From an uncultured Myxococcales bacterium (lineage in GTDB: Bacteria > Myxococcota > UBA4151): DNA of 21,952 nt. Below the pieces are notes generated by a model. It ran no database searches. It worked only from the letters and a program-made list of their open reading frames with translations, and was not told the origin of the DNA. A program made the position numbers and the translations under genes. Shown one piece after another: positions 1,633 through 19,352 of this stretch. Positions within the stretch are counted from its first letter, which is position 1, and each line of letters starts with the position of its first letter. Location: NCBI GenBank assembly GCA_964013405.1, contig CAXGWI010000049.1, positions 1-21,952 of the forward strand, written 5' to 3'.

Positions 1633-2901
1633 ATGGAGGGAGCCATGGAGCCGCCGGAGACCGACAAGATGCCCCCGCCGAATGCCTTTGAGCGGGCGTT
1701 GAGCGTCTGGCTCCTCGAAGCCGACCGGCTCGAAGAGCCGCCGGAGCAATTGCTCCACGGATTGGTGGAGCAGTTCGCCCGGCAAGGGATCCATCTCCTC
1801 ACCAGTTCGGCCCTGGTGCGGACCCTTCATCCTCAATTCGAAATGTTGGCCCAGCGTTGGCGTCCTTTTGTGGTCGACGAGATTAAAACCGAAGGCAGCG
1901 ATCGACTGCAGGGGCATCGCAAGGTGCCTGGACCTCGGGGAATCGTGGATATGTACATGTTTGCCCACGGTCATAGTCAGGAGACCCTCTATCAAGAGAG
2001 CCCGTTTCACGCGGTTCATCAGTCCGGTCTACCCATGCGATGGCGCCCCGAGACCGGGGGGGATGTCGCTGGTTTCCAGGTGATCGATGAACTCCGAGCG
2101 CGTGGCGCAACCGATTATGTGGTGCTGCCAGTTGCCATGCAGGCTCCATTCGCCGCCGGCGTCAGCTTTGCGACCGCCCATGCCGGTGGCTTTCCGCCAG
2201 GGTTTCAGGAGGATCTGGAGCGACTCATGCCCCTGTTCGGCTTGGTGATGGGCTTTGCCCTGGAGCGCATCAGCTTGCGGGAGATCATGGCTGCCTATCT
2301 TGGGCCCAGTGCCGCCAAGCGAGTCCTCCGCGGGCAGATCGTCTTGGGTCAGGTGAAGTCCTTGAAGGCAGTGATCGGTTTTGCCGACCTCTATGGCCTG
2401 CGCCGCCACGTGGATGATGTGCCTGAGGAAGATCAGATCAAAGCCCTTTCGCGTTTCTTTGCGGTCGCCCAATCCGCAGTGCGGCAAGCAGGAGGTGAAA
2501 TCCTCAAAATGATGGGCGACAGCTTGCTGTTTGTAGTGCCCCTGGAAGAGGGCGTGCCCGAGCGAATTCGGGGCCGTGCTCTGGACGTTGCACAGCAAGT
2601 GATCCGGCGGTCTCGAAACAATGAGTTGTTCGAAAAGTACGGACTGACGGTTTCTTTGGGACTTCACGAAGGCGAGGTCTTGCTGGGGAACGTCGGTGCA
2701 CCGTCGCGGCTCGACTTTACGGTGTTGGGCGAAGCGGTCAATCTGGCCGCTCGGCTGCAAAAATGGGGGGGGATGCATGGCGAGCCTATTGTGCTTTCCG
2801 CAGAACTTGCCGGGCGTCTAGATCGCGATTTTCGCGCCCTCGGCCCCGTGACACTCAAGGGCATTCTCGAGCCCCAGGAGGCCATGGCGCCCCGTGAATA
2901 A
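1633..2901 (+). CDS. Class III adenylate/guanylate cyclase with N-terminal GAF-like region (paralog 1)
   Basis: Motifs GFADL, GGEILKMMGD, GLHEGEVLLGNVG, RLDFTVLGEAVNLAARL. Lys and the RLD Asp point to ATP specificity. Start may instead be ATG 1645, after GGAGGGAG. Confidence 0.92.
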   Translation: MEGAMEPPETDKMPPPNAFERALSVWLLEADRLEEPPEQLLHGLVEQFARQGIHLLTSSALVRTLHPQFEMLAQRWRPFVVDEIKTEGSDRLQGHRKVPGPRGIVDMYMFAHGHSQETLYQESPFHAVHQSGLPMRWRPETGGDVAGFQVIDELRARGATDYVVLPVAMQAPFAAGVSFATAHAGGFPPGFQEDLERLMPLFGLVMGFALERISLREIMAAYLGPSAAKRVLRGQIVLGQVKSLKAVIGFADLYGLRRHVDDVPEEDQIKALSRFFAVAQSAVRQAGGEILKMMGDSLLFVVPLEEGVPERIRGRALDVAQQVIRRSRNNELFEKYGLTVSLGLHEGEVLLGNVGAPSRLDFTVLGEAVNLAARLQKWGGMHGEPIVLSAELAGRLDRDFRALGPVTLKGILEPQEAMAPRE

Positions 2902-4150
2902 TCCGGTTGATGAGCTGAGCCCAGAAGGACGCCTTCGGTTGGCGGAAACCACACAGTGGTTGTTGGATCCTGCTCGTCTTGAGGAAGCGCCCGAGCGCTA
3001 TCTTTTAAATCTGATGGCCCATCTCAACAGCCTCGGGTTGGAACTCGCGGGGGGCAGCATTATTCTTGAGACGATGCACCCACAGCTCGAGATGATGATT
3101 CAGCGCTGGCGCCCTCGGGGCGTGGATGAAGTCGATGTGGGCGACCTACGCACGCTGATGGGACTCGATCGGGTCGCAGACGATCAGGGGGTCGTTGAGC
3201 TCTATTTCCTGCGTCACGGTCATACGGACGAAGCCATGTACCGGAAGAGTCCATTTTACTACGCCTCGCAGACGGGTCGGGCCAGTTGTTGGAAGCTCGC
3301 TGAGCATCAAGAATCGCCACGCTTTCCGATCTTTACCGACCTCATCGCACGGGGGGAGACCGAGTACCTCGTAACGCCTCTACCCCTGCCAAAGCCCTAT
3401 CGAGCAGGTTTCAGCCTCTCGACCCGTCATCCCGACGGCTTCCCGGCGGATATGCTTGTGTTTATTGAGCACCTTCTTGGGGCTTTGCGTTTGTCACTGG
3501 CCCACAAGGTGGAACGAATTACCCTGGCTGAGGTGCTTGGCGCTTATCTGGGTCGAAGCCCAGCTCAAGAGGTGGTGACAGGCAACGTGCATTTGGGGGG
3601 GCTACGCTCCCTCGAAGCCATTGTCGGCTTTGCCGATCTCCGAGGTTTTACCGTGTTGTCTCAATGCCTCTCAGGCGAGGCTTTGGTCGCGACCATGAAC
3701 CAGTTCTTCGCGGCCCTCGAAAAGGTGGTTCGTCGGGCCGGTGGTGAAGTCCTGAAGTTTATGGGGGATGGTGCCGTCTTCGTCTTCCCTTGTGAAAATC
3801 AGGAGGAGGGGCAGGTGGCCGAACGAGCTGTTCAGGCCATCGTGGGCCTCGGAAACCAGCTCGAGGAGCAGCAAGACGCTGAAGGCGTCACGCGGCTACG
3901 CTTTGCGGCCGCGCTGCACAGGGGCAAGGTTCGCTACGGGAATGTGGGCGCACCCGACCGTCTCGACTTCACCATCATTGGCGCCGATGTGAACAAGACC
4001 GCTCGGCTCGAAGAGGTGGCTGCCCAGCATGATCTGGAGCTTGTGATCTCAGCCGAGTTGGCGAGTCTTCTGCAGCGACCCACAACCCCCCTAGGTCACT
4101 ATCAACTCAAGGGCTTTCGAGGTGAACAGGAAGTCTTCGTGCTTTCGTAA
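2894..4150 (+). CDS. Class III adenylate/guanylate cyclase with N-terminal GAF-like region (paralog 2)
   Basis: Motifs GFADLRGFT, GGEVLKFMGDG, ALHRGKVRYGNVG, RLDFTIIGADVNKTARLE. GTG start overlaps the upstream gene by 8 nt; colinear similarity to paralog 1. Confidence 0.93.
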   Translation: MNNPVDELSPEGRLRLAETTQWLLDPARLEEAPERYLLNLMAHLNSLGLELAGGSIILETMHPQLEMMIQRWRPRGVDEVDVGDLRTLMGLDRVADDQGVVELYFLRHGHTDEAMYRKSPFYYASQTGRASCWKLAEHQESPRFPIFTDLIARGETEYLVTPLPLPKPYRAGFSLSTRHPDGFPADMLVFIEHLLGALRLSLAHKVERITLAEVLGAYLGRSPAQEVVTGNVHLGGLRSLEAIVGFADLRGFTVLSQCLSGEALVATMNQFFAALEKVVRRAGGEVLKFMGDGAVFVFPCENQEEGQVAERAVQAIVGLGNQLEEQQDAEGVTRLRFAAALHRGKVRYGNVGAPDRLDFTIIGADVNKTARLEEVAAQHDLELVISAELASLLQRPTTPLGHYQLKGFRGEQEVFVLS

Positions 4151-4159
4151 AGCCGGCCT

Positions 4160-7150
4160 TTAGGGCTTGGGCTTCTCCGGTACTTGCTCGACCATTAGGT
4201 GCTTTTTGAAGAAGCGCAGCGTCGCCGCAATGTTGATCGCCCGGTTCTTGCGCTTGCGAACACCATGCCCCTCATCGGGATAGAGGATCACCTCCACCGG
4301 AACCCCCTTCGCTTCGAGGCGCTGGGCGATCTGCACCGTCTCGCCGGCGGGCACTCGAGGATCATTGGCGCCGTGAAGTAGCAACAGGGGGTCTTTAAGT
4401 TTGTCCACGTGGGTGATGGGAGACAAGGCCACCAGCGCCTCCATATCCTTGTCTAAGTAACCGTATTCGGATTCCCGCAGTTTGCGGCGATAGGGCGCAG
4501 TGTTCTCCAAAAAGGTCACCAGGTTGCTCATGCCCACATTGGCGGCACCGGCATCGTAGCTGCCGGCGAACATGGTCATGCCCACCAAGGTGGAGTAGCC
4601 GCCGTAGCTGCCACCGGCGATGCCGACTTTCGGCGCCTCGCTGTTGTGGGCATAAGCCTTCTTCACGTAGGTCGCTGCATCCCGAATGTCTGTGATCACA
4701 TCCAAGCGCTTGGCGCGATTGTCTGCATGGAGCCAGGCTTTGCCTAAGCCTGAGCTGCCCCGAACATTGGGCTTCGCGACGATAAACCCAGCCTCCAAGA
4801 ACAACTCATCATAGGGACTAAAGCCCGGATACGAAGCGCTCTCGGGGCCCCCATGGAAGCGGACGATCACCGGGCACAACTTCTCAAGACAGGCGGCGGG
4901 GCGTTTCACGAACATCGGGATCTGGGTGCCATCAGCGGCCGGATAGGTCACCAACTCGTCCTTGGTGAAGCGAGCCGTGTTGACTTCAGGCGCCGACGGA
5001 AGAGTCCACTGTTGCAGTTGGCGGGTTTGCCAGTCCCAAACATAGCTGCTGCGGGGGCGGTCATGGTAGGTGACGCCGACGGCCATATAGCGCCCGTTTT
5101 GGCTCAGTTTGCCCAGGAGCGTATGGGTCGCCCCTTCAAAGTTGGGACCCTCGATGGGCTCTCCTTCCATGTTCGAGAAGGCGAAGGAGTAGCGGCCATC
5201 TTTGACCAGGCGAAGATGGATGCGAGTCTTCGATCGGTCCGTGAAAAAAGAGCTGATCTCGATGCCGGTTTTGGGACTCAGCGGCACCAGCTCGCCTGCC
5301 CTCAAGACATAGAGGCGCTTGAAGTCCTCAAGCTTGTTGGTCAGAACCAACACTTCGCCCTTGTCATTAAAGGCGACGCTGTACTGCTCTTCTTCGTTTT
5401 GTCCCAGGATCGGGGTGAGTTTCTTGCTGCTCTCATCGAAGCGATACACTTCTCGTGACGTGTTGCCTTTGGCTTTCACCAGCAGCAGTTGGTCGCCCTG
5501 CTTGTCCGCCAGAAACCAATAGCCGGGCTGCTCAGACACCACCTCGTGGCGGTCTTCTGCCACCAGATAGCGATAGAGGGTGTAATCAGCCCGGTTCTTG
5601 TCGTTGGCCGTGTAGTAGAGGACGTTGGCATCATCAGCCGTCCACTGGAGATTGACCTTCACTTTTTTCGCTTCCTTGATGGGCCGAAGCGCACCGCCCG
5701 ACGCCTGCAAAAGGTAGAGACCGAAATACTCGCTGCCCGCGGAATCTCGGGACACCACCAGGGTTTTGCCGTCGCTGAGCAAACCGCGCAGATAAGTGCT
5801 GTCCTGGCCACCGGTGAGTTGCACCGGAAAGGACTGATCTTTGCTCAGTCGCCACACTTGGTTGGTTCCCGTGACCGACCAATTCATGAACACATTCCAG
5901 CCGCTGTTGCTGATCATGCCGCTGGAGGGTGAGCGAATGTCCAAATAGCTTTGAATTCGAGTCAACTCGGCACTTGGAATACGGGGCGGCGCGTAGGCCT
6001 CGAGGATCTCCGGTGAGACTGACCCTTCGCCATGGCCAGCATAGTCCAAGGAGGTCGGCACAGAGTTCGCCGGCAAGCGATGGGAGGACTCAAACCGCTT
6101 ATGAAAGGTGGCGAAGGACGCGAGGATGACAAAGAAGAAGCAAAGTGTCGCCAGGGTGGAGACCAGTAGAAGCAGTGGGGGGCGGTCACTGAATTGGGGT
6201 GGGGGTCGAGGGGATTCGCTGGGCTCGGCCAGCCTGCGAAGGGCCAGTCGCTGCATACGCGGGGTGAGGACCAACTCGCTGAGGCCGATGGCATAGAAAA
6301 GAGAAAGCAAAGCGAGCGCGAGCGCCGGACCGATCGTGGTGGGGTCGTCCATGTTGGCGAACATGGACACCATCCCAATGAAGAAGCCCGTGCCCCCCGC
6401 AGCGAGAATCAGTTGACGGCTGGTGTTGAAGACCCGGTGATGCACATCAGCCTCAGCCAATGGAGTCGACTGGCTACTTTCGGACCAAGCGGCGATCAGC
6501 CTTGGAAGGGAATGAAAGCTCAGGCTCAACAAGCAAGGGGCGATCAGGACAATCATCACAGCCGTGGTGTCGATAAAGATAGCGATCCATGAGTCGATCG
6601 TCATCGCAGCGATCAGCAGAAGCCCGGCCAGAAACTTGAATCCTTTGCGTGCGATGGGATGGGCGCCCCGAAGGGCAGCGACATCTTCTATGGCTGCATC
6701 GGGCAGGGACGCGTCGGCTCGCCCCCCTATTTTGCGCTGCAAGGGCACCACCAGTAACTCGGCCAGGACCACGGCGTAGAGGCTGGTCAAGAGGGCCACT
6801 GCGAGGGCCGGACCGATGGTGCTTGGATCCGACATGTTCGCGAGCATTTTGACCAGGCCGATGAGGGTTCCTACCACGCCTGCCCCACAGAGGGTGACCC
6901 GTAGGGTTTGGACGACATGCTGATGGGCAGCGGCTTGATTGGCCGGAAGGGGCCCGGAAGCCAGTGACGCTTTCAGTGCTTGGCCTAAGCTGTGCCACCC
7001 GTGGGCGCCGAGGGTAAAAAGAATGCCCCCCATGACGACCAAGATGGCGGAGTACAGATCGAAGAAGAGAAAGAGATGAAGAAGGTTCGGATTGGCCGCC
7101 GCTAGAAGAAAAATAGCGACGGCACCGATGAAGCAAAGCGCGCGGACCAA
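4160..7150 (-). CDS. Fusion: two mini-MotA/PomA-like membrane modules + extra TM helix + S9 (prolyl oligopeptidase family) serine peptidase
   Basis: aa ~1-142 and ~171-303 each carry F[FI]D in TM1-2 and GxxG..IG.V.M.ANM.DP.TIGPALA.ALL.LY in TM3-4. Further TM at aa ~326-348. Then a propeller-like region and a catalytic domain with FHGGPE, PNVRGSSG, GGSYGG (Ser), GANDPRV (Asp), DEGHG (His). TTG start with AGGAG 9 nt upstream. Confidence 0.9.
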   Translation of the reverse strand: MVRALCFIGAVAIFLLAAANPNLLHLFLFFDLYSAILVVMGGILFTLGAHGWHSLGQALKASLASGPLPANQAAAHQHVVQTLRVTLCGAGVVGTLIGLVKMLANMSDPSTIGPALAVALLTSLYAVVLAELLVVPLQRKIGGRADASLPDAAIEDVAALRGAHPIARKGFKFLAGLLLIAAMTIDSWIAIFIDTTAVMIVLIAPCLLSLSFHSLPRLIAAWSESSQSTPLAEADVHHRVFNTSRQLILAAGGTGFFIGMVSMFANMDDPTTIGPALALALLSLFYAIGLSELVLTPRMQRLALRRLAEPSESPRPPPQFSDRPPLLLLVSTLATLCFFFVILASFATFHKRFESSHRLPANSVPTSLDYAGHGEGSVSPEILEAYAPPRIPSAELTRIQSYLDIRSPSSGMISNSGWNVFMNWSVTGTNQVWRLSKDQSFPVQLTGGQDSTYLRGLLSDGKTLVVSRDSAGSEYFGLYLLQASGGALRPIKEAKKVKVNLQWTADDANVLYYTANDKNRADYTLYRYLVAEDRHEVVSEQPGYWFLADKQGDQLLLVKAKGNTSREVYRFDESSKKLTPILGQNEEEQYSVAFNDKGEVLVLTNKLEDFKRLYVLRAGELVPLSPKTGIEISSFFTDRSKTRIHLRLVKDGRYSFAFSNMEGEPIEGPNFEGATHTLLGKLSQNGRYMAVGVTYHDRPRSSYVWDWQTRQLQQWTLPSAPEVNTARFTKDELVTYPAADGTQIPMFVKRPAACLEKLCPVIVRFHGGPESASYPGFSPYDELFLEAGFIVAKPNVRGSSGLGKAWLHADNRAKRLDVITDIRDAATYVKKAYAHNSEAPKVGIAGGSYGGYSTLVGMTMFAGSYDAGAANVGMSNLVTFLENTAPYRRKLRESEYGYLDKDMEALVALSPITHVDKLKDPLLLLHGANDPRVPAGETVQIAQRLEAKGVPVEVILYPDEGHGVRKRKNRAINIAATLRFFKKHLMVEQVPEKPKP

Positions 7151-7176
7151 AGCGTTAAACTCCTAGCTTGGTGGGA

Positions 7177-7728
7177 TTAATCGATAGCGCTGAGTACGAC
7201 GAAGAGCATCGCAAGAGGGCCGATGATCACACCGCCCATGCTCAAGGGGGCCGAGGCACTTGGTGGCTGGAGCAGGTGATCGATCATGTGGCGGGGCGTG
7301 GTGTCATCGGCGCCGAGCATGGCGCCGACTCGGTGCATCAGCGGACCACAGATAAGAAGTCCAAAGAGCACGCCGTAGAGGAGACTCAGGATGGACACCG
7401 CCATGGCCGGGCCGATCCGTGCGGGGTCTTCCAGATTCCTGAGGATGCCCACAGCCCCAATAAAGAACCCCAGGGCGGCCATGGCCATGAAGAGATTGCG
7501 ACCGTTCCTGAGGGTTTCGTAGGCCTGCCACTTGTCCTGAGCGCTTTTGCCTTCGCCACTCCAGCTGACTCGAAGGGCTTGAAGGACATGACCGCCATGC
7601 TGACTCAACCAAAAGCAAAGTCCGCCTATTGCGACAAGGCCAAGGGAGGTGAGATCGATGAAAGAGACATGACCAGCGGCGAGGATCAGGGTCAGATAGC
7701 CCACAAGGATGAGAAGTGCAGCGAGCAT
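7177..7728 (-). CDS. Single mini-MotA-like module ('B type') with an extra C-terminal TM helix
   Basis: 183 aa; FIDLTS, then GFFIGAVGILRNLEDPARIGPAMAVSILSLLYG. SD GAGGAGG (7738-7744) lies in the end of the upstream gene. Confidence 0.85.
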   Translation of the reverse strand: MLAALLILVGYLTLILAAGHVSFIDLTSLGLVAIGGLCFWLSQHGGHVLQALRVSWSGEGKSAQDKWQAYETLRNGRNLFMAMAALGFFIGAVGILRNLEDPARIGPAMAVSILSLLYGVLFGLLICGPLMHRVGAMLGADDTTPRHMIDHLLQPPSASAPLSMGGVIIGPLAMLFVVLSAID

Positions 7729-7732
7729 CAGC

Positions 7733-8254
7733 CTAGCCCTCCTCTTTGTGGGTCACCGCCTTGCGGATCGAGCCAGACGGTGCGGGTTCCAAGGGGGACA
7801 CATTGCTTGGCGCCGCTTCACTGGGCTCTAGAATTTGAATCCGGCCGATGAGCGGTGCCACAATGAGCTCCGAGGCGATGACGGCGTAAAGACCCGTCAG
7901 CAGCGCCACCGCAAGCGCCGGCCCCACTGTGGTGGGGTCGCTTAGATTTTGCAGCATGTGGACGAGACCGATGAGAAAGCCGAGGCCTCCACAGGCACAG
8001 AGCAGTGAGCGCAGACTCTGCAAGACCTGACGGTGCTTCGCGCCCAGCCCGGACGCCACGGCTTCCTCTCCCTCCGCGGCGCTGATGGCAGCACCGAGGG
8101 CGCCAGGGCCGTGATATCCAGCGGCCAACAACACGCTAGGCACGATGACCACAACCGTCGAAGCGGCATCGATGAAGACGAGGCCTCCACCCATCGCCAT
8201 GACAAGACCTATGGTTCCTAAGCCCAGTAGTAAGAACAGAACACGAATCATCAT
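7733..8254 (-). CDS. Single mini-MotA-like module ('A type')
   Basis: FIDAAS, then GFLIGLVHMLQNLSDPTTVGPALAVALLTGLYAVIASELIVAP. Start moved from 8326 to ATG 8254/8251: GGAGG at 8257-8261 and an MIR.LF N-terminus shared with the 10286 paralog. Confidence 0.87.
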   Translation of the reverse strand: MMIRVLFLLLGLGTIGLVMAMGGGLVFIDAASTVVVIVPSVLLAAGYHGPGALGAAISAAEGEEAVASGLGAKHRQVLQSLRSLLCACGGLGFLIGLVHMLQNLSDPTTVGPALAVALLTGLYAVIASELIVAPLIGRIQILEPSEAAPSNVSPLEPAPSGSIRKAVTHKEEG

Positions 8255-8284
8255 GACCTCCGAACTGAACGAGCACGAGCCATC

Positions 8285-8293
8285 AGCATAACA
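8285..8293 (-). promoter_or_regulatory. Candidate extended -10 promoter element (TGtTATGCT) for the 8254-4160 genes
   Basis: TGn+TATGCT about 30 nt upstream of the start codon; no convincing -35. Confidence 0.35.
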
Positions 8294-8403
8294 TCGCCGG
8301 ACCCGAACACCTAGAAGGTCCCGCAATCGTTAGACTGGATACGATTTGGCGCTCGGGTCAAGCCCGTGAAAGGCCAGCGGCGCTTCCTTGCCGCAAACGG
8401 TGG

Positions 8404-9135
8404 CTAAGGCAGTGGTAACGTGCCGTCTCTAATGCCTCTGCAGGTTTTTGCATTGCGGCCCAGCGTTTCGGGTCTCTTACCTCGTGTTCGCACCCACCGG
8501 TCACCGATCTTTTGCAGGGTAAACAAGCCGCCGATGCAGCGGGTCTTTGGTGATTGACCCGCATGAATGGGCACGGCTCGGAGGCAGCCTTCAACATCCT
8601 TGTCGTAGTCGTGCGCTTCACCGGCTTTCCAGCAAAGAAACTGCTCCGTATACCACAGATAGACATTCACCGTCGTCTCTGGAAAAGCGGTCCCGTTGGC
8701 CGTCCGCTCGGGGACGATTTGGTGCTGCATGACCCGCCACCCCGCCTTGCCATCGCCACCGCCCCACCAGTCCCCGGACTTCCGCAGGGTCTTGATGATT
8801 TGAAAGACCTCTTCTTTCGTTTGGGGGTCATCGCAGTTGAAGAACTTGCAGGCCTTTTCGATCGGAATGGTTGAGTAGCGCCCTTTGACGGCAATCTCTT
8901 GAAAGTAGCTATTAAGGGTTTCCATAGCCGCTTTGCGCGCGGCTTCTTGGCGCTTGATCGGTTCTTCGATGGCTTTCAGCCGAGCCTTGGTTTCGGCCAA
9001 TTCTGTCTTGGTGCTCTCCAACTCCGCCTCCATCGCCTTTCGCTGCGCACCGAAAAGATCTGCGTGGGCGCAGCCGGACAAGCCGAGCGCAAGGCCGAGT
9101 GCGATGAAGCAGGACGTTAGACGACTCACTGGCAA
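8404..9135 (-). CDS. Hypothetical lipoprotein with N-terminal coiled coil and Cys-rich C-terminal domain
   Basis: Signal peptide with lipobox LSG-C; heptad-like stretch AMEAELESTKTELAETKARLKAIE; six Cys in the C-terminal domain. Start TTG 9135 or GTG 9129. Confidence 0.75.
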   Translation of the reverse strand: MPVSRLTSCFIALGLALGLSGCAHADLFGAQRKAMEAELESTKTELAETKARLKAIEEPIKRQEAARKAAMETLNSYFQEIAVKGRYSTIPIEKACKFFNCDDPQTKEEVFQIIKTLRKSGDWWGGGDGKAGWRVMQHQIVPERTANGTAFPETTVNVYLWYTEQFLCWKAGEAHDYDKDVEGCLRAVPIHAGQSPKTRCIGGLFTLQKIGDRWVRTRGKRPETLGRNAKTCRGIRDGTLPLP

Positions 9136-9254
9136 CCCCCTGTGTTTACCGGCCGACCCTAATTGAAATGTCCCGGCTTGCGAAGTCGCTTCATGACCAC
9201 ACCCATCGTGGCAGCTTCAAAGGGAAAGGGCGGATGGTGCCGTGGTGCTGGCCC

Positions 9255-10286
9255 TTATGGGACGGCCGAGATCGCCAGGAAGCTAAGCAGGACAAAGCCA
9301 AGCTGCATGCTGGTCGTGACGATCGGGGCCATGGTGCCGTTGGTTTGTAGCCATCGATGGACGAGGGCTGGGGGGGGCGTTGCATGGGTACCAAGTTTGG
9401 CACCGACGCGGTGCATGAGGGGGGCGCAGATCAAAAGCCCGAGATACAGACTGTAGAACAAACTGAGCAGAGCGATGGCCATCGAAGGACCGATTTTTGA
9501 GGGATCGTTTAGGTTCTGAAAGACGCCCATGGTGCCCATGAAGAAACCCACTCCGCCGGTCATAAGAAAGAGATCTCGACCGGTACGAAGGACTTGGTAG
9601 GCCTCAGTCATGTCTTGGGTCTCCCCTGCGGCCGGGTTCCAAGCCAAGCGAAATGCTCTGAAGACGCCGCTGCGGTATTGGGTCAGCCAGCAGCCCAGAC
9701 CACCACCAAAGACCAAGATGAAAGCCGTTGTGTCCAGGAATGCGGCCCAAGCCCTCCCCAACCACATGACCAAGCCCAAGAACAGGAAGCCGCCGAGCAC
9801 GAGAAGAAGAGAGAGCACGGGCTTCGTGCTTTTGACTGGGGTCCCTTCACCCGGGTCGGGATCCAGTACCTGAAAGCTGTTGATCATCGGAGCCACAAGC
9901 AACTCGGAGAGGATCAGTGCATAGAGGCCGGTGGTGATGACGAGAGCAAGCGCGACATGAAAAGTATTAAAGTCCGACAAGTGGTTGAGCATTTGAACCA
10001 TGCCAATGATCGATCCGACCGCACCGCAAGTACACAGAAGGGAGCGAAGTCCTTGCAGCGTCTCACGGTGTTGCAGCGCCACACCCGGTGGAATGGCCTC
10101 TGACTTGCCTGCGGCAACGATCGCTGCAGCCAGGGAACCGGGGCCCAGGTAGCCAGCGGCGAGAAAGAGGCAGGGAATGACGACGCTGAGGATCGAGGCA
10201 GTGTCCAGAAGCGCCACATGGCTGGCTGTCGTCATGACAAAGGCAAAGATCCCCGCGGTCGCGAGGAAGAAGAGGATGCGAATCAT
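9255..10286 (-). CDS. Double mini-MotA-like protein (A module + B module + extra C-terminal TM helix)
   Basis: 343 aa. N-half aligns by eye with 7733-8254 (LAAGY.GPG, LRSLLC.CG, TGLYA...SEL.VAP). C-half aligns with 7177-7728 (AY..LR.GR.LF, DP..IGP.MA, GLLIC.PLMHRVGA.LG). GGAGG upstream. Confidence 0.87.
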   Translation of the reverse strand: MIRILFFLATAGIFAFVMTTASHVALLDTASILSVVIPCLFLAAGYLGPGSLAAAIVAAGKSEAIPPGVALQHRETLQGLRSLLCTCGAVGSIIGMVQMLNHLSDFNTFHVALALVITTGLYALILSELLVAPMINSFQVLDPDPGEGTPVKSTKPVLSLLLVLGGFLFLGLVMWLGRAWAAFLDTTAFILVFGGGLGCWLTQYRSGVFRAFRLAWNPAAGETQDMTEAYQVLRTGRDLFLMTGGVGFFMGTMGVFQNLNDPSKIGPSMAIALLSLFYSLYLGLLICAPLMHRVGAKLGTHATPPPALVHRWLQTNGTMAPIVTTSMQLGFVLLSFLAISAVP

Positions 10287-12871: not shown

Positions 12872-14269
12872 TTAGGGGGCTTTGCTTCGAGTATGCTCGA
12901 ACTGCCAATCCACTCTGCAAACGGTTTTGGGGGGCTTTGGGCTCCGCCGACTCGAGGCCCGCCTGGTTCCTTTGATATGGGGTTTGAAGGCCCTCCCTAG
13001 GGCGTCCTTGTAGCGGCTTCCTTGCAGTGGAAGCCCAAGGCATTGAGCTTTCACCTGTCCTAACCGAGGGTTCGTTTCACCCTCGCCGTTGGGCCCAGTT
13101 GAACCGGCATTTTTGCTTTTGAGGAATCGTTGGAGTCTCACCTTGAGTTGGTCCCTGCAGGATTTTTTGTCTTCGGCATTCTGGCACTTTTTCATGCCTT
13201 CTCGCATTTGCTTTCGATAGGCTTGCCGCCGGGCCTGGCTCGACTTCTTGGGGTTGGTTTCCCGTGCCGGAGAAGCAGTCATTCCACCCCTTTCGTTGAT
13301 GTAAAACGTGTAGTGATGACGGCCAAAGAGCCCTCTGCCTGCGTGAGAAAGGCATGATTTGATCTTTTCGAAATGGGGTTTGATCGCGGTGGCGACTGCC
13401 GCAGCATCGCAGGGCTCTTCCGTTTTCAGGTTGTACGTTTTGAGTTGATAGTCACCGGGCCTGCGCACTTGCCATGGGCCATCTTGCCACCTGCGAGGAT
13501 GTTCTTTGTATTCGTAGGTTTGCGTGATGCGGTAGTTCAGGCTGCAGACCTTCTTCGTATCGTTTGGATTCCAGTTGCTTGGCCTCTTCGAGCCCCCCCA
13601 ATACTTGCCCATGGAATTAATGGATTTCTGGATGCAGGTTTCGAGCGCGTCGCGTTTCGTTCCTTGCGCAAGGGCAGGGACGTTCGCTTTGACGGAGAGT
13701 TCGTGGCTATGGGCGGCGAATTCAGCCGCAATATAGGCGACGCCACCATCGTTGATTCCAGCCTGTTCAAAGCAGTGTTCGGCGCCCATGTGATAGGCGT
13801 ACTCTTTGAGTTTCTTGCGCTGACAACGGCCCTTGAAACGCCACTGATCAAAACGCCCCTTCCGGTATCGATAGGGGCGTTTGGCTGCCTCCTGGTCGGC
13901 GAGACGGTCTTTTGGATCCGAGGGGGAGACATCTACCGGCTGAAAGGGGGCGGCAGGCGTCGTTGTTGTGGAAGCAGCCGGGGGGGGAGGCGGTGAAACG
14001 GGGGGATTCTCCTGGGTCGGGGAGGGTGCTGGTGGTGGGGGCGTTGTTTGTTTGGGGGCGCCAGTGCTCGCCGAGGCAGAGGAGTCACCGTCCGCCGCCG
14101 AATCTGCGGTCTCAATCGAGGGGGGCACTGCGATGGATGGGGCGGATTCGGTGGACGACTCCGTCCCCATCGTGGCCGGGTGGTGTGTGGGCTGCTCCAT
14201 CGTGGGTTTGGGAGGATGACCACAGGCGGTAAGCCCTGTGACAAAGAGAATGAGGTGGTGGCTTTTCAT
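12872..14269 (-). CDS. Hypothetical lipoprotein: Pro/Ser/Thr-rich linker + two Cys-containing repeats resembling AgmX/PglI (TonB-C-like) domains
   Basis: 465 aa; lipobox LTA-C; aa ~20-120 low complexity. AIKPHFEKIKSCL....LFG.HHYTFYINERG ... AQCL resembles the AgmX/PglI C-terminal pattern; the domain call is tentative. Confidence 0.65.
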   Translation of the reverse strand: MKSHHLILFVTGLTACGHPPKPTMEQPTHHPATMGTESSTESAPSIAVPPSIETADSAADGDSSASASTGAPKQTTPPPPAPSPTQENPPVSPPPPPAASTTTTPAAPFQPVDVSPSDPKDRLADQEAAKRPYRYRKGRFDQWRFKGRCQRKKLKEYAYHMGAEHCFEQAGINDGGVAYIAAEFAAHSHELSVKANVPALAQGTKRDALETCIQKSINSMGKYWGGSKRPSNWNPNDTKKVCSLNYRITQTYEYKEHPRRWQDGPWQVRRPGDYQLKTYNLKTEEPCDAAAVATAIKPHFEKIKSCLSHAGRGLFGRHHYTFYINERGGMTASPARETNPKKSSQARRQAYRKQMREGMKKCQNAEDKKSCRDQLKVRLQRFLKSKNAGSTGPNGEGETNPRLGQVKAQCLGLPLQGSRYKDALGRAFKPHIKGTRRASSRRSPKPPKTVCRVDWQFEHTRSKAP

Positions 14270-14362
14270 GGCAAACTCTCAATTTCGCTGACGAGCTTGG
14301 CATGTTCCGCGCCGGCCGAGAATGGGGTGTGCGCAAATTTTCGGTTTCGGCGACGACGCTAG

Positions 14363-17300
14363 TTAGTCTGCACCGCAATGGACGTCGCGCCCTGTGCCCT
14401 CCCAAGGCTGACCTTCATCGATGGTTTCGCCGGAATCGAGACGCCCATTGCCGCAATGTCGGCGCCACGTGCTGAGCGTGCGGACTCGCAGGTCTTGCTG
14501 GCCATAAGTAACGACAAAGCGATCTGTGGCGGCGCCTTGGCCAAGCAGTTTGTCGATGGTGACGTGGTGATAGCCATCCATGGATCGACCGATCTCTGAA
14601 TCCTCGAGGGTCGGATTGACTGTGCCTTCGGCCCAGGGGGAATTGGCGAACAGACTGATCCCGTTCCATCCATCGCCTCGTTTATGGGAAGCCGCCCAGC
14701 TTCCATCGGCCGAAAAGAAGGGCCGAGCACACTTCCACGAACCCAATTCCACGAGTTTGAAACCGTCTCTAAGCCGGTGCAAGCCGCAACCATCCAGGCC
14801 GTAGAGTGCTTCTTTTTGCAGCGGCGACATTCCTGCCGTCATTCGGGGCCCGCCGGGCAGGATGTAGCGGCGCTCCCCGTAGAGATCGTAAGCTTGGAGC
14901 GAGCCCCATTGGCGGTTGCAAAAAAGACTGTTGCCGTCTGGGGAGAAGGCGAGAACCCGTTGGTTACTGTCGCCTCCGCCACATTCAGGCCACTGCCGAA
15001 GGGGCGTGAGTTCTTGGTCGAGTAAGATCAGACGACAATTGAGTTCGTCACAACCTGCCACCGCAATTCGTTCGCCTCCCGGCGCCAGGGCAAGTTCCGG
15101 GGAATCGACTTCTGAAGCCCAGCTGGCCTGGGGAGCTTCGGGGGCAAGGAGGTCGTAAAGTTGGACGGTGGCTTGTTGATTCGGCCCCGTGAGTAAGGCC
15201 AGCCAACGGCCCCCTGAATCAATGGCGGGACGGTAGCCAGGCAAGCGGGCAAAGATCAGCCCGCTGTTTACATCCCAGACAAGGACTTCCTCCCCATCAC
15301 TGGACACCACGGTTTGATGGTCGGCGCTCAGGCGAAACCCCGTATGACCTTCGTCCGGGCGCTGGAGTGTTCTTTTGAGTTTCCAAGTGATGGCGTCGAT
15401 AAATCGAACCGTGTTGTCACTGAGGAGCAGCGCTATGGTTTGTTCTTCGGCATCCATGGTCCAGAGATCAATGGAAGCGTGGCCCGCCTCAGGAGGCACA
15501 CGCAGAGGCCGAGCAGCGTCTGTGTTCGGGGGCAGAAGCGGACCTCCCGGAAGGGTTTGGTTGGCGAAGATACTTGTCCGATAATGGAAGCCAGAACTCG
15601 ACCAACTGTAGGTGGTCATTCCACCGATCCCGGGCAGCCGGGCTGTATCGAAAGGAACTCGATTGAAATGGCTCCCGTTGTCGCCGAGATCGACTTGGCC
15701 GAAGACGCCTTCTGGATCGCCCGCAAAAGGGCTTTGCTGGAGGGCGACCTCACCGGCGCGCCCACCGCCGTCAGCGAACCAGAGCGTTTGTGGCGGGCCC
15801 GTAAAGTCCAGTTGGATGAGGGGCTGATTCAGTTGACCGGCCGTGAAGGGGACTTCCGTGGGCGCAGCGAAGAAGGGGGCGGAGCCGGTACCGGGCAGGA
15901 AGGCGATACGGGGTAAAAGGTAGTTTGCATGGGTGCCTGTGGGCTGGGCGAGATCGAGATCCCCATCGCCATCGAGATCGGTCAGAGGACAGGCGAGCCG
16001 GGCCACTTGAGGGGCATAAGGGCTCACCGGATTGGGCCCATGGGACCAGGTTCGATGGCCATGGAATCGAAAAGCCTCTCCCTCTTGGTCCATCACCTGC
16101 ACCCAGCCGCCGCGGTCATCGACACCGCAAAGCACAGCCTCCAAAAAGGGATCGTCGTCTAACTGATGTCGTTGTCCGCCGAGAATCTTCAGGTCACCGG
16201 CATTGGCGCCGACCAAGATAGGTACCGCCAATCCACCGGGGGTGAGTTCAGTCCATCGATGGGGGGGATGGGCATAGATTTGGACGGGATCGCCCACTTC
16301 ACCATTGGGTTCAACCAAGCGAATCTCAAGTTCTCGCCCGTCTCCTAGGTCGGCATGGTCGACCTCTGTGAAATAGATCCAGCCACCATCTTGGGCCACT
16401 GCATCGATGGGCAAGTCCCGAACTTTACTTCGGTTCAGATCCCCTTCAGCGTTGATATCCACCGTCCACAATTCGGCCTTCGTGCAGCCTTGATAAGGGT
16501 CACCACCACCCTCCGCTTGGTCGGCCCGAAAACACTCGCCGGGCAAGCCATCTAAATCAGCAGGTCGAATGGGGGCATAGCCATCGGCCAAGTCCAAGTG
16601 AAAGCGTGTGCTTGCCGCCGCATCTTCCAGGCGAAAGAAGGTGGTGTTGTGAAGGGTAAAGCCGGGCCCATTGTCCGCTGCCGTGGCGATGCGAAGCCCG
16701 TTGAGTTCCGGCAGCGGATAGCCGTCGAGTTCGAGGTTCAGGGTGGGAGCTTGGGGCCACGGTTCTGCGATGGCCGGTTGGATGACACAGGGACGTGCAT
16801 GATTCCGCCCGCCCGCCACCCGCCAGGTCGCTTGGCCCTGAGCGTCCAAGAGCTGGATTCGCTCGTCCGTCCAGCAGTTGGTGACATTCAACCAGACTCG
16901 GAGGCCGACTTTGGGATTTCCAAGGGCATCATTGACGCTGAGCCGGATCGCTTGGCTGTTCTGCGCGCTGAACTCAGCGGGCGGGCTTTGATGGGCCAGG
17001 AATTGTTCCGGCCCATCATCGACCACAGCCTCGAGTGAGCCGCCTACCGGAGGCCCTGGTGTTTGTATGATTCGAAGGGGCTGGATCACCGCGCCGTGTT
17101 GAAGGTTAAATTCACAGTGGTCGTCGCCGCCCAGTGTCACCGCATGGCCCGCGGCGAGTACAACCCCATGATCCCCTCCCAAAATGACTTGGCCCCCGTC
17201 GTCGGTAACCATGTTGTCGGGCCCGATTTGCCCGCAGCCCTCCGGTTGATCGCCAGCCGCGACCGCGGAAAGCCCCAGACCCGCCATGCCCCCGCCGACC

Positions 17301-19318
17301 TCGTTCTCCAGGCGCAGGGTGATGGGTTCCACCAGCCGTTCGCCGATAGGGACCTGAAGGTTCACAGCACCCGCTTGATTCATCAGCACCCGTCCCGCCC
17401 GAAGCAAACGAATGCGATGGGGAGTCCCGGCGCCGACGGTGACCGTCAATTGGGTGGTTTGATCGAAGTCCTCACCCTTTTCGGCCCGGACCCCCAAACT
17501 TAATTCCCCAGCGGTTTCCGCACCCGTAATGAGGAAATTGAAGCGGCCCAATGGATTTGTGTAGCCACTGCTCGGACTCACCATGAGGCCATCGGGTGGG
17601 CTCAGGGTGATGGCAGCGTCAGCCACACCATTTCCGGCTGCGTCGCGGACGTGCACAGCCAGGGGACCGAAATTTCCGCCCAGCAAGACGGCGATTTGCT
17701 CGGCCGGCTCCGTCAGCACGGTCGTTGGTGGTCCAGGCTCGAGAAGTACGGGGATTTCTTGGCGGAGCTCCTGTCCATGGACTTTGACCACCAAGGTGAT
17801 GGGCCGGGCCACGGTCGCTGGACCGTAGGCGCAGAGGTCGAGGCGAACCGTGCCATAGGCGGGGTTTGCCGTGCCGTTGATTTCTTCCCGACCATCCGTC
17901 AGGGAGAACTCGGGGAGTCCATCCCCCTCTGGATTGCATTGTCCTTCTTGGGCGAGGCGAAGCGCCGAGGCACCGCTCCAGCGCACCAATTGCAAGTCGA
18001 GACGAGTCTCTGGAACCAGACTCGACTGGCGGTCCCGGGCTTCGATGATGATTGAAAAGGGCTCACCTGGTTCTGCTCTGCCTAACTCCCGATCCTCGTC
18101 GCCAGCCCTCGCTGTTAATTGGTGGACCGGCTGCGCCCAAAGGGCCACCCAGGCTCGAGCCTGCACGACCGGATGATCCACAAGGCTCGCCTGAAGGGCC
18201 ACTGGCGTTGGCAGTGAGATCGGGCATTGGACAAGGGCATGGATCTGTCCGGATGCGTTGGTGACTTGGATGGGGTTTCCAATCAATTCCAGAGCGTTGC
18301 CGTTGAGGAGGATCGCAACCCCCGAGGCTGGTCTGCCCTCCGCGTCGAGCGCTTCAAAGCGGATGGGGGGGGAGACCAGGCCGGGTTCGCAGCGGATGGT
18401 TGGCTCTAAGTCCGCTTCCGTGGCGTCGATGGCACGAATCAGAGCCGGGTCGGCCGACCGGGTGCTGCCTTGAAGCGCAAAGCTTCCATCTGGACTCCCA
18501 GGGAGATGGTCCCCATGGATTCGCCCAGGCAGTGTCAACTTCAGGGTCCAAGGGCCGATGCGCTCGCCCCCCGATAAACAAAGGATGGCCCAGCCCGCTT
18601 CGCCCCCTGTCCTCGCCACCGCCTGAGGCTCAGCCAGAGGGGCGCCACAGGTCCCACCTGCGCTGGAATGAAGGCGAACAGGGACCGCTTCATTCGCAGG
18701 GACGACCGGAGCCGACGCGTGGACCTCGATGCCGTCGATGGGATTGCCTTGTTGCCCTAAGACTTGAATCTTGAGTTGGACAGCCTCTCCATTGGCGATG
18801 ATTGAAAAGGGTGCAGCCGTGGGCAGCGGGTCCACTCGGCCCTGCTGCCAGTCCACGATGCCCGAAGCGCCGAGATCAAAGCGGATGGAGAGTTGCCGTT
18901 CGTCCGGGACCAACTTGAGTTCTAGTGTTGTCGAGAGATCAGGGCGTGCGTTGGCACGGGCGGTGAAGGTGACCTCACCAGCCGTACCTGTGGAGATCAC
19001 GAGGATGGAGCAATGACCTTCTGGATTGGTGGTGCAAGCGTCACCTTCGGGAAAGCGAAAACGTTCGAGGAAGTCCTGTTGCTGAACGCTGAGGCGCACG
19101 CCACTACCCGCTAAGGGGCCCGTGTTGGATCGGATCTCAATCTCGACCCTGAGTGGCGTGCCGACGAAGATCGCTGTTGGATCCAGTGGGTCACCAGAGA
19201 GGGCATCGCTGAGGCCTTTGATTTGGATTTGGCTTGGACCCTCGTCACCTGTTGGCAATTCTGGAAGTGACTGTGCACAGGCCGAAATCAGAACCAACAG
19301 GCTGCCGAGGTAACGCAT
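14363..19318 (-). CDS. Large (~1650 aa) lipoprotein: Ig-like (Big_1/invasin-type) repeats + FG-GAP + WD40-like propeller + degenerate myxobacterial Cys motif
   Basis: Lipobox ISA-C. Repeated D.xGNP..G / T(N/D)..G motifs (VRDAAGNGV, VNDALGNPK, TNASGQ, TDDGGQ); DLDGDGDLDLA; FSPDGNSL, FSADGSW; C-terminal CGNGRLDSGETIDEG. Start ATG 19318 preferred over GTG 19345. Confidence 0.8.
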   Translation of the reverse strand: MRYLGSLLVLISACAQSLPELPTGDEGPSQIQIKGLSDALSGDPLDPTAIFVGTPLRVEIEIRSNTGPLAGSGVRLSVQQQDFLERFRFPEGDACTTNPEGHCSILVISTGTAGEVTFTARANARPDLSTTLELKLVPDERQLSIRFDLGASGIVDWQQGRVDPLPTAAPFSIIANGEAVQLKIQVLGQQGNPIDGIEVHASAPVVPANEAVPVRLHSSAGGTCGAPLAEPQAVARTGGEAGWAILCLSGGERIGPWTLKLTLPGRIHGDHLPGSPDGSFALQGSTRSADPALIRAIDATEADLEPTIRCEPGLVSPPIRFEALDAEGRPASGVAILLNGNALELIGNPIQVTNASGQIHALVQCPISLPTPVALQASLVDHPVVQARAWVALWAQPVHQLTARAGDEDRELGRAEPGEPFSIIIEARDRQSSLVPETRLDLQLVRWSGASALRLAQEGQCNPEGDGLPEFSLTDGREEINGTANPAYGTVRLDLCAYGPATVARPITLVVKVHGQELRQEIPVLLEPGPPTTVLTEPAEQIAVLLGGNFGPLAVHVRDAAGNGVADAAITLSPPDGLMVSPSSGYTNPLGRFNFLITGAETAGELSLGVRAEKGEDFDQTTQLTVTVGAGTPHRIRLLRAGRVLMNQAGAVNLQVPIGERLVEPITLRLENEVGGGMAGLGLSAVAAGDQPEGCGQIGPDNMVTDDGGQVILGGDHGVVLAAGHAVTLGGDDHCEFNLQHGAVIQPLRIIQTPGPPVGGSLEAVVDDGPEQFLAHQSPPAEFSAQNSQAIRLSVNDALGNPKVGLRVWLNVTNCWTDERIQLLDAQGQATWRVAGGRNHARPCVIQPAIAEPWPQAPTLNLELDGYPLPELNGLRIATAADNGPGFTLHNTTFFRLEDAAASTRFHLDLADGYAPIRPADLDGLPGECFRADQAEGGGDPYQGCTKAELWTVDINAEGDLNRSKVRDLPIDAVAQDGGWIYFTEVDHADLGDGRELEIRLVEPNGEVGDPVQIYAHPPHRWTELTPGGLAVPILVGANAGDLKILGGQRHQLDDDPFLEAVLCGVDDRGGWVQVMDQEGEAFRFHGHRTWSHGPNPVSPYAPQVARLACPLTDLDGDGDLDLAQPTGTHANYLLPRIAFLPGTGSAPFFAAPTEVPFTAGQLNQPLIQLDFTGPPQTLWFADGGGRAGEVALQQSPFAGDPEGVFGQVDLGDNGSHFNRVPFDTARLPGIGGMTTYSWSSSGFHYRTSIFANQTLPGGPLLPPNTDAARPLRVPPEAGHASIDLWTMDAEEQTIALLLSDNTVRFIDAITWKLKRTLQRPDEGHTGFRLSADHQTVVSSDGEEVLVWDVNSGLIFARLPGYRPAIDSGGRWLALLTGPNQQATVQLYDLLAPEAPQASWASEVDSPELALAPGGERIAVAGCDELNCRLILLDQELTPLRQWPECGGGDSNQRVLAFSPDGNSLFCNRQWGSLQAYDLYGERRYILPGGPRMTAGMSPLQKEALYGLDGCGLHRLRDGFKLVELGSWKCARPFFSADGSWAASHKRGDGWNGISLFANSPWAEGTVNPTLEDSEIGRSMDGYHHVTIDKLLGQGAATDRFVVTYGQQDLRVRTLSTWRRHCGNGRLDSGETIDEGQPWEGTGRDVHCGAD

Positions 19319-19343
19319 CAACTTGCCGTCCAATTGCCATCTC

Positions 19344-19352
19344 ACGGTAGCA
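19344..19352 (-). promoter_or_regulatory. Candidate extended -10 element (TGcTACCGT) for the large lipoprotein gene
   Basis: TGn+TACCGT 25 nt upstream of ATG 19318. It overlaps the alternative GTG start. Confidence 0.3.

Follow-up and report, generated by a model that had tools for sequence, protein, structure and literature searches.

The window analyzed here is a 21,952-nucleotide stretch that makes up all of contig C49 (GenBank accession no. CAXGWI010000049.1) of an uncultured Myxococcales bacterium (assembly GCA_964013405.1; genome G000; 3.9 Mb, 94% complete), and we focus on an array of four co-oriented minus-strand genes in it, gD, gC, gB, and gA, which encode six flagellar stator-like modules arranged as 2+1+1+2. 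This arrangement, proposed in an initial annotation, is confirmed by the translations and by comparison of the modules, which share 21 to 49% pairwise identity; however, the array is split by an unrelated 243-amino-acid (aa) open reading frame (ORF), and the gene at 4160 to 7150 is also fused to an S9 peptidase. The protein gD (9255..10286; 343 aa) contains two modules resembling a reduced PomA (D1 and D2) followed by a weakly MotB-like C-terminal helix (approximately aa 319 to 343) and represents a paralogue, in fused form, of gC plus gB (D1-C1, 49% identity; D2-B1, 46%). D1 is degenerate in the loop between transmembrane helices (TM) 3 and 4 and lacks the F-x-D and DP..GPA motifs, contrary to the initial annotation, which ascribed these signatures to all six modules. 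The gC product (7733..8254; ~173 aa from the likely start behind a GGAGG) is a single module without a MotB-like (B) helix, i.e., an A-only form. It is followed by gB (7177..7728; 183 aa), with one module and a fused MotB-like helix (aa 159 to 182), whose own ribosome-binding site overlaps the gC end. A frameshifted gD was considered as the source of gC and gB and ruled out because of this ribosome-binding site and because the split recurs in three other genomes (G001, which is of the same genus, G002, and G005). The 996-aa gA combines two tandem modules (aa 1 to 145 and 165 to 305; 6236..7150), a fused MotB-like transmembrane helix (aa 325 to 353; 6092..6178; an AlphaFold2 helix with a predicted local distance difference test [pLDDT] score of 64 to 72), and the peptidase (4160..6055).

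Both profile and fold support the stator origin that had been proposed for these modules. The suggested hidden Markov model scan placed Pfam MotA_ExbB above its cutoff in three of the four genes, and PomA was the best NCBIfam stator model in all four, with scores far under its cutoff. A profile of the family to which they belong (see below) aligns with PomA in two pieces (residues 5 to 63 and 120 to 212). In the 78 modules in which it could be measured, the median TM2-TM3 span is 56 residues, versus 119 in 22 canonical MotA proteins, as expected from the close spacing noted earlier, with ~63 residues of the torque interface gone from the module cores. AlphaFold2 models of gA residues 1 to 354 (pLDDT, 88.8; predicted template modeling score, 0.87) and gB (mean pLDDT, 92.0) display a square four-helix transmembrane fold with unbroken TM3 helices (70 to 104 and 231 to 265 in gA; 63 to 97 in gB). 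The best structural match of gB is 8gqy_A (VIA Z = 13.7; root mean square deviation, 3.5; 144 residues aligned), and its six best matches are all MotA/PomA chains (Z = 11.7 to 13.7), with the next at 8.6. Foldseek searches with the two-module model recovered no match at an E value of 0.001, the top nine rows being PomA or MotA throughout, and ExbB/TolQ was absent from the top structural and sequence matches. The modules lack the torque-generating interface of at least four helices found in FIT stators. Taken together, the two-piece alignment to PomA, the short TM2-TM3 span, and the MotA/PomA fold indicate that the torque-generating interface and the C-terminal cytoplasmic domain were deleted from a flagellar-type core, in agreement with the loss of the rotor-binding domain inferred in the initial annotation.

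The initial annotation had further held that the array lacks a MotB partner. This proved incorrect: one further C-terminal transmembrane helix, fused in frame, closes the membrane part of gA, gB, and gD. We built a helix profile from 111 of 113 family helices, excluding the window's own and its nearest relative, and ran it over the 3,220 predicted proteins of the genome, 1,105 of which have a hydrophobic segment. It ranked gA first and three Asp-bearing MotBs second to fourth. The remaining MotB came 17th or 40th, according to the composition correction applied, and an ExbD-like protein came 322nd. Comparison of the family helix profile with 39 MotB helices by hhalign gave a probability of 96% (E = 3.7e-9), against <1% for the family's own TM1 to TM4 as a control. 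MotB_plug matched 5 of 37 scanned proteins, always under the cutoff (best, P0030 helix; E = 7e-5; 22.7 bits; cutoff, 24). The C terminus of MotA is cytoplasmic, and MotB spans the membrane outward from that side, so the topology fits an A-to-B fusion. The retained portion is the periplasmic half of the MotB helix; in gA, the FFV[LI]L half is kept and Ser replaces the MotB Asp. None of the 113 helices is acidic in the Asp column (PomB D24), and only 7 have any Asp or Glu in the span. Since 98 of the 113 helix-bearing proteins stop within 20 residues past the FF motif (8 carry more than 60 further residues), the plug and wall anchor have been lost; likewise, a Pfam scan found neither a plug nor an OmpA-like peptidoglycan-binding domain in the window genes. 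We conclude that these genes very probably encode a single-chain, rotor-blind MotA-MotB remnant that is kept under selection.

A planctomycete member (L085:1480-2445) has a periplasmic domain that by eye resembles a worn OmpA-like MotB domain; by sequence, the match to an OmpA-like domain is not significant (hhalign probability, 3.8%; fourth among 202 with shuffles).

No separate motB/exbD, zorB, or flagellar gene was found in the window by ORF translations and profile scan, as stated initially for motB, exbD, and flagellar genes, but elsewhere the genome encodes fliG and two canonical motA-motB-motB loci, one of them in a cluster read from translations as fliL-fliM-flhA. The search proposed for orphan motB genes uncovered four motBs, all in canonical loci. 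In one such tandem, the first motB behind motA (G000:C7:26596-27297; L001:8597-9298) has no membrane Asp while retaining its OmpA domain; the second bears the Asp and gave no OmpA match. This pairing of Asp-less and Asp-bearing motB genes recurs in several Myxococcota (L038, L039, L040, and L041), which suggests that the axle is a heterodimer with a single Asp.

We then mapped the ion-site positions, by PomA numbering, in up to 199 family modules. The TM3 proline (P151) is lost across the family, with Cys, Leu, or Met in all six window modules, which bears out the replacement reported initially. T158 is retained in 48/198 modules and T186 in 17/199, and the Na+-type cavity residues M165 and M179 persist in 123/199 and 110/199, respectively. 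Position 147 is Arg or Lys in 152/198 modules, and position 194 is Glu or Asp in 159/194 modules versus 0/53 canonical MotA proteins. Among the window modules, four have Glu194 (gC and both gA modules, each together with Arg147, and D1), whereas the residue is Leu in B1 and D2. Of 193 modules, 133 combine Arg147 with the acid, 26 have just the acid, 18 have just Arg, and 16 lack both; the pair could form a salt bridge, and position 194 could be a relocated ion site. In plugless PomAB, the ion leak is abolished by T158A, by T186A, or by D24N (PMC6677748). As the residues needed for this leak are mostly lost, the canonical ion path is predicted to be shut.

These same residues raise a possible, though rather unlikely, alternative, which is a close second in our ranking of functional explanations, namely, that the family forms a self-assembling nonrotary ion channel or a sensor of ion gradients, with the carboxylate shifted from the MotB Asp to Glu at the position of PomA N194 and ion flow uncoupled from rotation. 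The acid that distinguishes the family from canonical MotA, its persistence without Arg147 in 26/193 modules, and the largely retained M165 and M179 would fit such a channel, as would the suppression of PomB D24N by PomA N194D (PMC11725901, citing its reference 42). Weighing against it, T158 and T186, each required for the leak (PMC6677748), are mostly lost, and the new Arg147 that accompanies the acid in most modules could be its salt-bridge partner, to judge from the expected geometry. Moreover, the acid is missing from both modules in 9 of 46 two-module proteins and is present in only 9 of 15 planctomycete modules, although several of these were selected by it. An open channel without a plug would also be toxic (PMC6677748 and PMC11940233).

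The family comprises >150 clusters in A, A+B, and AA+B forms from Myxococcota, Planctomycetota, and other phyla; it was delineated from the best 150 of 5,192 matches, canonical MotA proteins among them, obtained at an E value of 0.001 in a profile search of 1.84 billion representatives. Of 159 proteins, 158 could be classed, the commonest form being A+B alone (70), followed by two modules plus helix (43), one module (38), and two modules (7), with the helix-less class including fragments and one truncated canonical-like protein. A survey of 401 Myxococcota genomes, in which eight candidates were scored per genome, identified full-length members in 6/6 genomes of the host family and in 2/2 and 4/6 genomes of two other families, and full-length members were also recovered in 7/301 Planctomycetota. 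A pattern scan of species genomes, with a pattern that required the Glu, found 28 loci in Myxococcota, Planctomycetota, Nitrospirota, and others, with one chance match. A search for longer fusions returned no match among 7,990 candidates of 421 to 2,000 aa, which argues only weakly against them. At the loci inspected, no conserved neighbor gene was apparent. We found no description of the family in the main texts of openly accessible articles. In a tree on 114 columns (excluding two long or gappy canonical rows), reduced and canonical sequences fall on opposite sides of one branch with support of 93/92; nevertheless, a separate planctomycete origin is compatible with the data (approximately unbiased test, p-AU = 0.148).

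The ESM Atlas contains MotA-like clusters of 149 aa, the few classified members of which belong to Spirochaetota or Uroviricota, as well as a Bacillota cluster of 143 aa. Neither tblastn against phage records nor a pair of pattern scans over viral contigs detected the candidate phage-borne members that these clusters suggest.

Arrays in the host family have roughly two A modules to each B helix: 6:3 in the window, 4:2 in G001, 2:1 in G002 and G003, and 4:2 in G005. ExbB assemblies have been reported as 5:2 and 6:3 (PMC9389320); about two A modules per B helix would fit three A-only chains with two A+B chains as 5:2 or, as for ExbB, 6:3. A predicted complex of three gC and two gB chains scored 0.54 versus 0.00 for the best of three controls, with contacts agreeing between runs by at least 93% and partner pLDDT of at least 64. 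This is weak support: the threshold was passed by 116 of the 157 solved pairs and by 2 of the 215 mismatched ones, of which 18 solved pairs and both mismatches scored ≤0.60, and resemblance to solved MotA rings may explain the pass. Between TM4 and the B helix, the linker has a median length of 37 residues (P199 to the FF motif).

We tentatively favor the proposal that the family is a sealed, locked stator mimic, a predicted decoy or brake that coassembles with, or throttles, the host MotA/MotB stators. Chains of the A-only, A+B, and AA+B forms would come together as roughly five A modules surrounding two B helices, and the covalent A-B link would forbid continuous rotation of a wheel around an axle. 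The canonical ion path would be shut without D24, T186, and, mostly, T158, and the plug may be dispensable because of this. Five genomes (G045, G050, G060, G075, and G121) have a single A+B gene together with canonical motA. Such a lone gene cannot reach 5:2 by itself; canonical MotA would supply the A subunits still needed, and the resulting hybrid stators would neither conduct ions nor push the rotor. A locked mimic would explain the tolerated plug loss, the conserved packing surfaces, the many genomes in which an A+B gene stands alone, and the link to fliG. This gene was detected in 8 of 9 carriers among relatives, 7 of 7 planctomycete carriers (one match weak), and 12 of 13 further carriers, 27 of 29 in total, versus 22/52 and 160/294 noncarriers. 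Of the 28 loci from the pattern scan, 15 were tested for fliG, two of which are counted among the seven planctomycetes. Given this enrichment, the nonmotility role put forward in the initial annotation is unproven and runs somewhat against the data.

Several observations weigh against a locked mimic. The fliG counts come from few carrier lineages, in which kin are not independent, two carriers (G409 and G005, the latter 59% complete) have no fliG match, a FliG match need not mean a flagellum, and no motB or flagellar gene adjoins the carrier loci inspected. Where an array has A-only genes of its own, it could assemble independently of host MotA. The gB and gD helices are more degenerate, and much less MotB-like, than the gA helix, and the prediction for three gC and two gB chains comes without contacts and so gives no placement of the fused helix in the center. 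The prevalence of the acid at N194 argues for retained ion handling, and the fusions to HAAS, histidine kinase, lectin, and peptidase domains (see below) would be unneeded by a pure decoy.

Comparison with the same-genus genome G001 points to purifying selection on the stator-like genes. The ratio of nonsynonymous to synonymous substitution rates (dN/dS) is 0.18 to 0.29 for modules and helix (gC, 0.19; gB, 0.18), 0.06 for the peptidase, and 0.02 to 0.10 for four neighboring genes. In G001, gD is a remnant of only the last ~45 codons (L018:7190-7400), which marks a deletion. The values for modules and helix lie above those of the neighbors and, with the gD remnant and the long branches, could be read as decay, i.e., motA-motB duplicates with little function that arose repeatedly by deletion; a separate planctomycete origin would fit such a history, and repeated origin would also account for the link to fliG. 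We regard this as very unlikely, as dN/dS is well below 1, all complete family loci inspected have intact frames, the deletion, the helix fusion, and the new Arg/Glu are shared across phyla, and the tree separates reduced from canonical sequences. The synonymous divergence from G001 (window 6236 to 8251 versus L018) is 0.11 to 0.38 for the stator-like genes and 0.9 to 1.6 for four upstream neighbors, suggesting that the two species recently exchanged the cluster.

Additional domains are attached to some members. In gA, the C-terminal S9 (prolyl oligopeptidase family) peptidase is predicted to be periplasmic (Pfam Peptidase_S9, E = 2e-41, 142 bits; S9_N, 29 bits), and the nucleophile, acid, and His motifs of the propeller plus alpha/beta hydrolase class are visible in the translation. 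This fusion is limited to G000 and G001, i.e., to one genus, among 31 genomes. An assembly error was ruled out by an identical 996-aa frame in G001, and the peptidase was ruled out as a core part, since in G005 it is encoded separately as a 655-aa protein with a signal-like N terminus of its own and in G003 it lies away from the array. Elsewhere, modules are fused to a histidine kinase (P0154), a C-type lectin (P0081), and, beside padR, a HAAS domain (L070; Pfam match under the cutoff), and HAAS-PadR has been proposed as an alternative to two-component systems (PMC11237479). Such fusions, together with the lack of conserved neighbors, are what one would expect of an ion-tight membrane scaffold or envelope sensor that works independently of the flagellum and signals to attached domains or anchors periplasmic enzymes. 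We consider this improbable: the fusions are in the minority, most helices ending shortly past the FF motif, the peptidase is confined to two genomes, and the enrichment of fliG would be left unexplained. Somewhat less doubtful, though still unlikely, is a composite in which a natural MotA-MotB single-chain fusion with its carboxylate moved from axle to wheel would be the first nonrotary ion gate of the 5:2 motor family, reused as a membrane input for HAAS-PadR and histidine kinases.

HAAS or HAAS-like N termini were seen on modules at L070:1270-2390, L126:3996-4859, L064:6467-7132, and L122:3914-5605, with a Pfam match for L070 only; one of these loci sits behind a gene that by eye resembles an extracytoplasmic function (ECF) sigma factor.

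The ORF that interrupts the array between gD and gC (8404..9135, minus strand; 243 aa) has a lipobox-like N terminus and a coiled-coil-like stretch and probably lies outside the system. It has no Pfam, NCBIfam, or PADLOC match over the cutoff and no paralogue in the genome, and it was ruled out as a missing partner by its absence from the syntenic G001 locus. The scan for promoters and terminators returned nothing usable. On the plus strand, convergent with the array, lie tandem adenylate/guanylate cyclase-domain genes (1633 to 4150); judged from translations, similar genes occur within ~8 kb of the arrays in G001, G002, G003, and G005. Further neighbors, both on the minus strand, are a sodium/calcium exchanger family protein with a poly-Glu linker (11 to 1477) and a region (12872 to 19345) coding for a 465-aa ORF of no family and a 1,660-aa Big_1/invasin-like protein with propeller repeats, the latter two being absent from the syntenic G001 region.

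Among known systems, the closest is PomA5PomB2 of Vibrio alginolyticus (PDB codes 8BRD, 8BRI, and 8ZYV; FIT/TGI4 class of PMC12505986). The two share the square four-helix core, the unbroken TM3, a near-identical loop 3-4 and TM4 start, largely M165/M179, and the periplasmic half of the B helix. In contrast to PomA5PomB2, the family lacks the torque-generating interface and the C-terminal cytoplasmic domain, has A and B on one chain, with a B part devoid of Asp, plug, and OmpA-like domain, has lost P151, T186, and mostly T158 while gaining Arg147 and Glu194, includes tandem modules, and sits outside flagellar clusters. The separate downstream B gene of FIT systems is likewise absent from the window and the loci inspected, the B helix being fused. 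The family works like the PomA5PomB2 membrane core but falls outside the FIT stators, for which a square fold with an expanded torque interface is diagnostic (PMC12505986); a word search of the main text of that study found no occurrence of "fusion" or "fused." With ExbB/ExbD, TolQ/TolR, and AglR (GIT class), the family has in common the Pfam MotA_ExbB domain and a small cytoplasmic part, and the ExbB 5:2 and 6:3 assemblies (PMC9389320) bracket its 2:1 module ratio. However, its fold is square with a continuous TM3, as opposed to the linear helix arrangement and broken TM3 of GIT systems, and its helix profile favors MotB over ExbD. Like the laboratory PomA N194D/PomB D24N suppressor, it carries an acid on A-TM4 at position 194 and none on B, and like plugless PomAB, it is without a plug; unlike that suppressor, it is natural, has Glu rather than Asp, and combines this with loss of T158/T186 and the A-B fusion. 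Zorya ZorA/ZorB is also a nonflagellar relative of 5:2 motors, but the long ZorA tail, the separate ZorB, and effector genes are missing from the family loci seen, and PADLOC gave no match for the four window genes at an E value of 0.1. To our knowledge, every characterized 5:2 motor needs separate, mutually turning A and B chains and an acid on the axle, and the present family keeps a flagellar-type membrane core yet breaks both rules. As a natural experiment, it could show whether the flow of ions through a stator core is separable from rotation and what role N194 plays. If the decoy proposal is true, it would represent an undescribed regulation of flagellar motors from inside the stator. 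Finally, a square fold without a torque interface fills a cell that is seemingly empty in the FIT/GIT scheme (PMC12505986).

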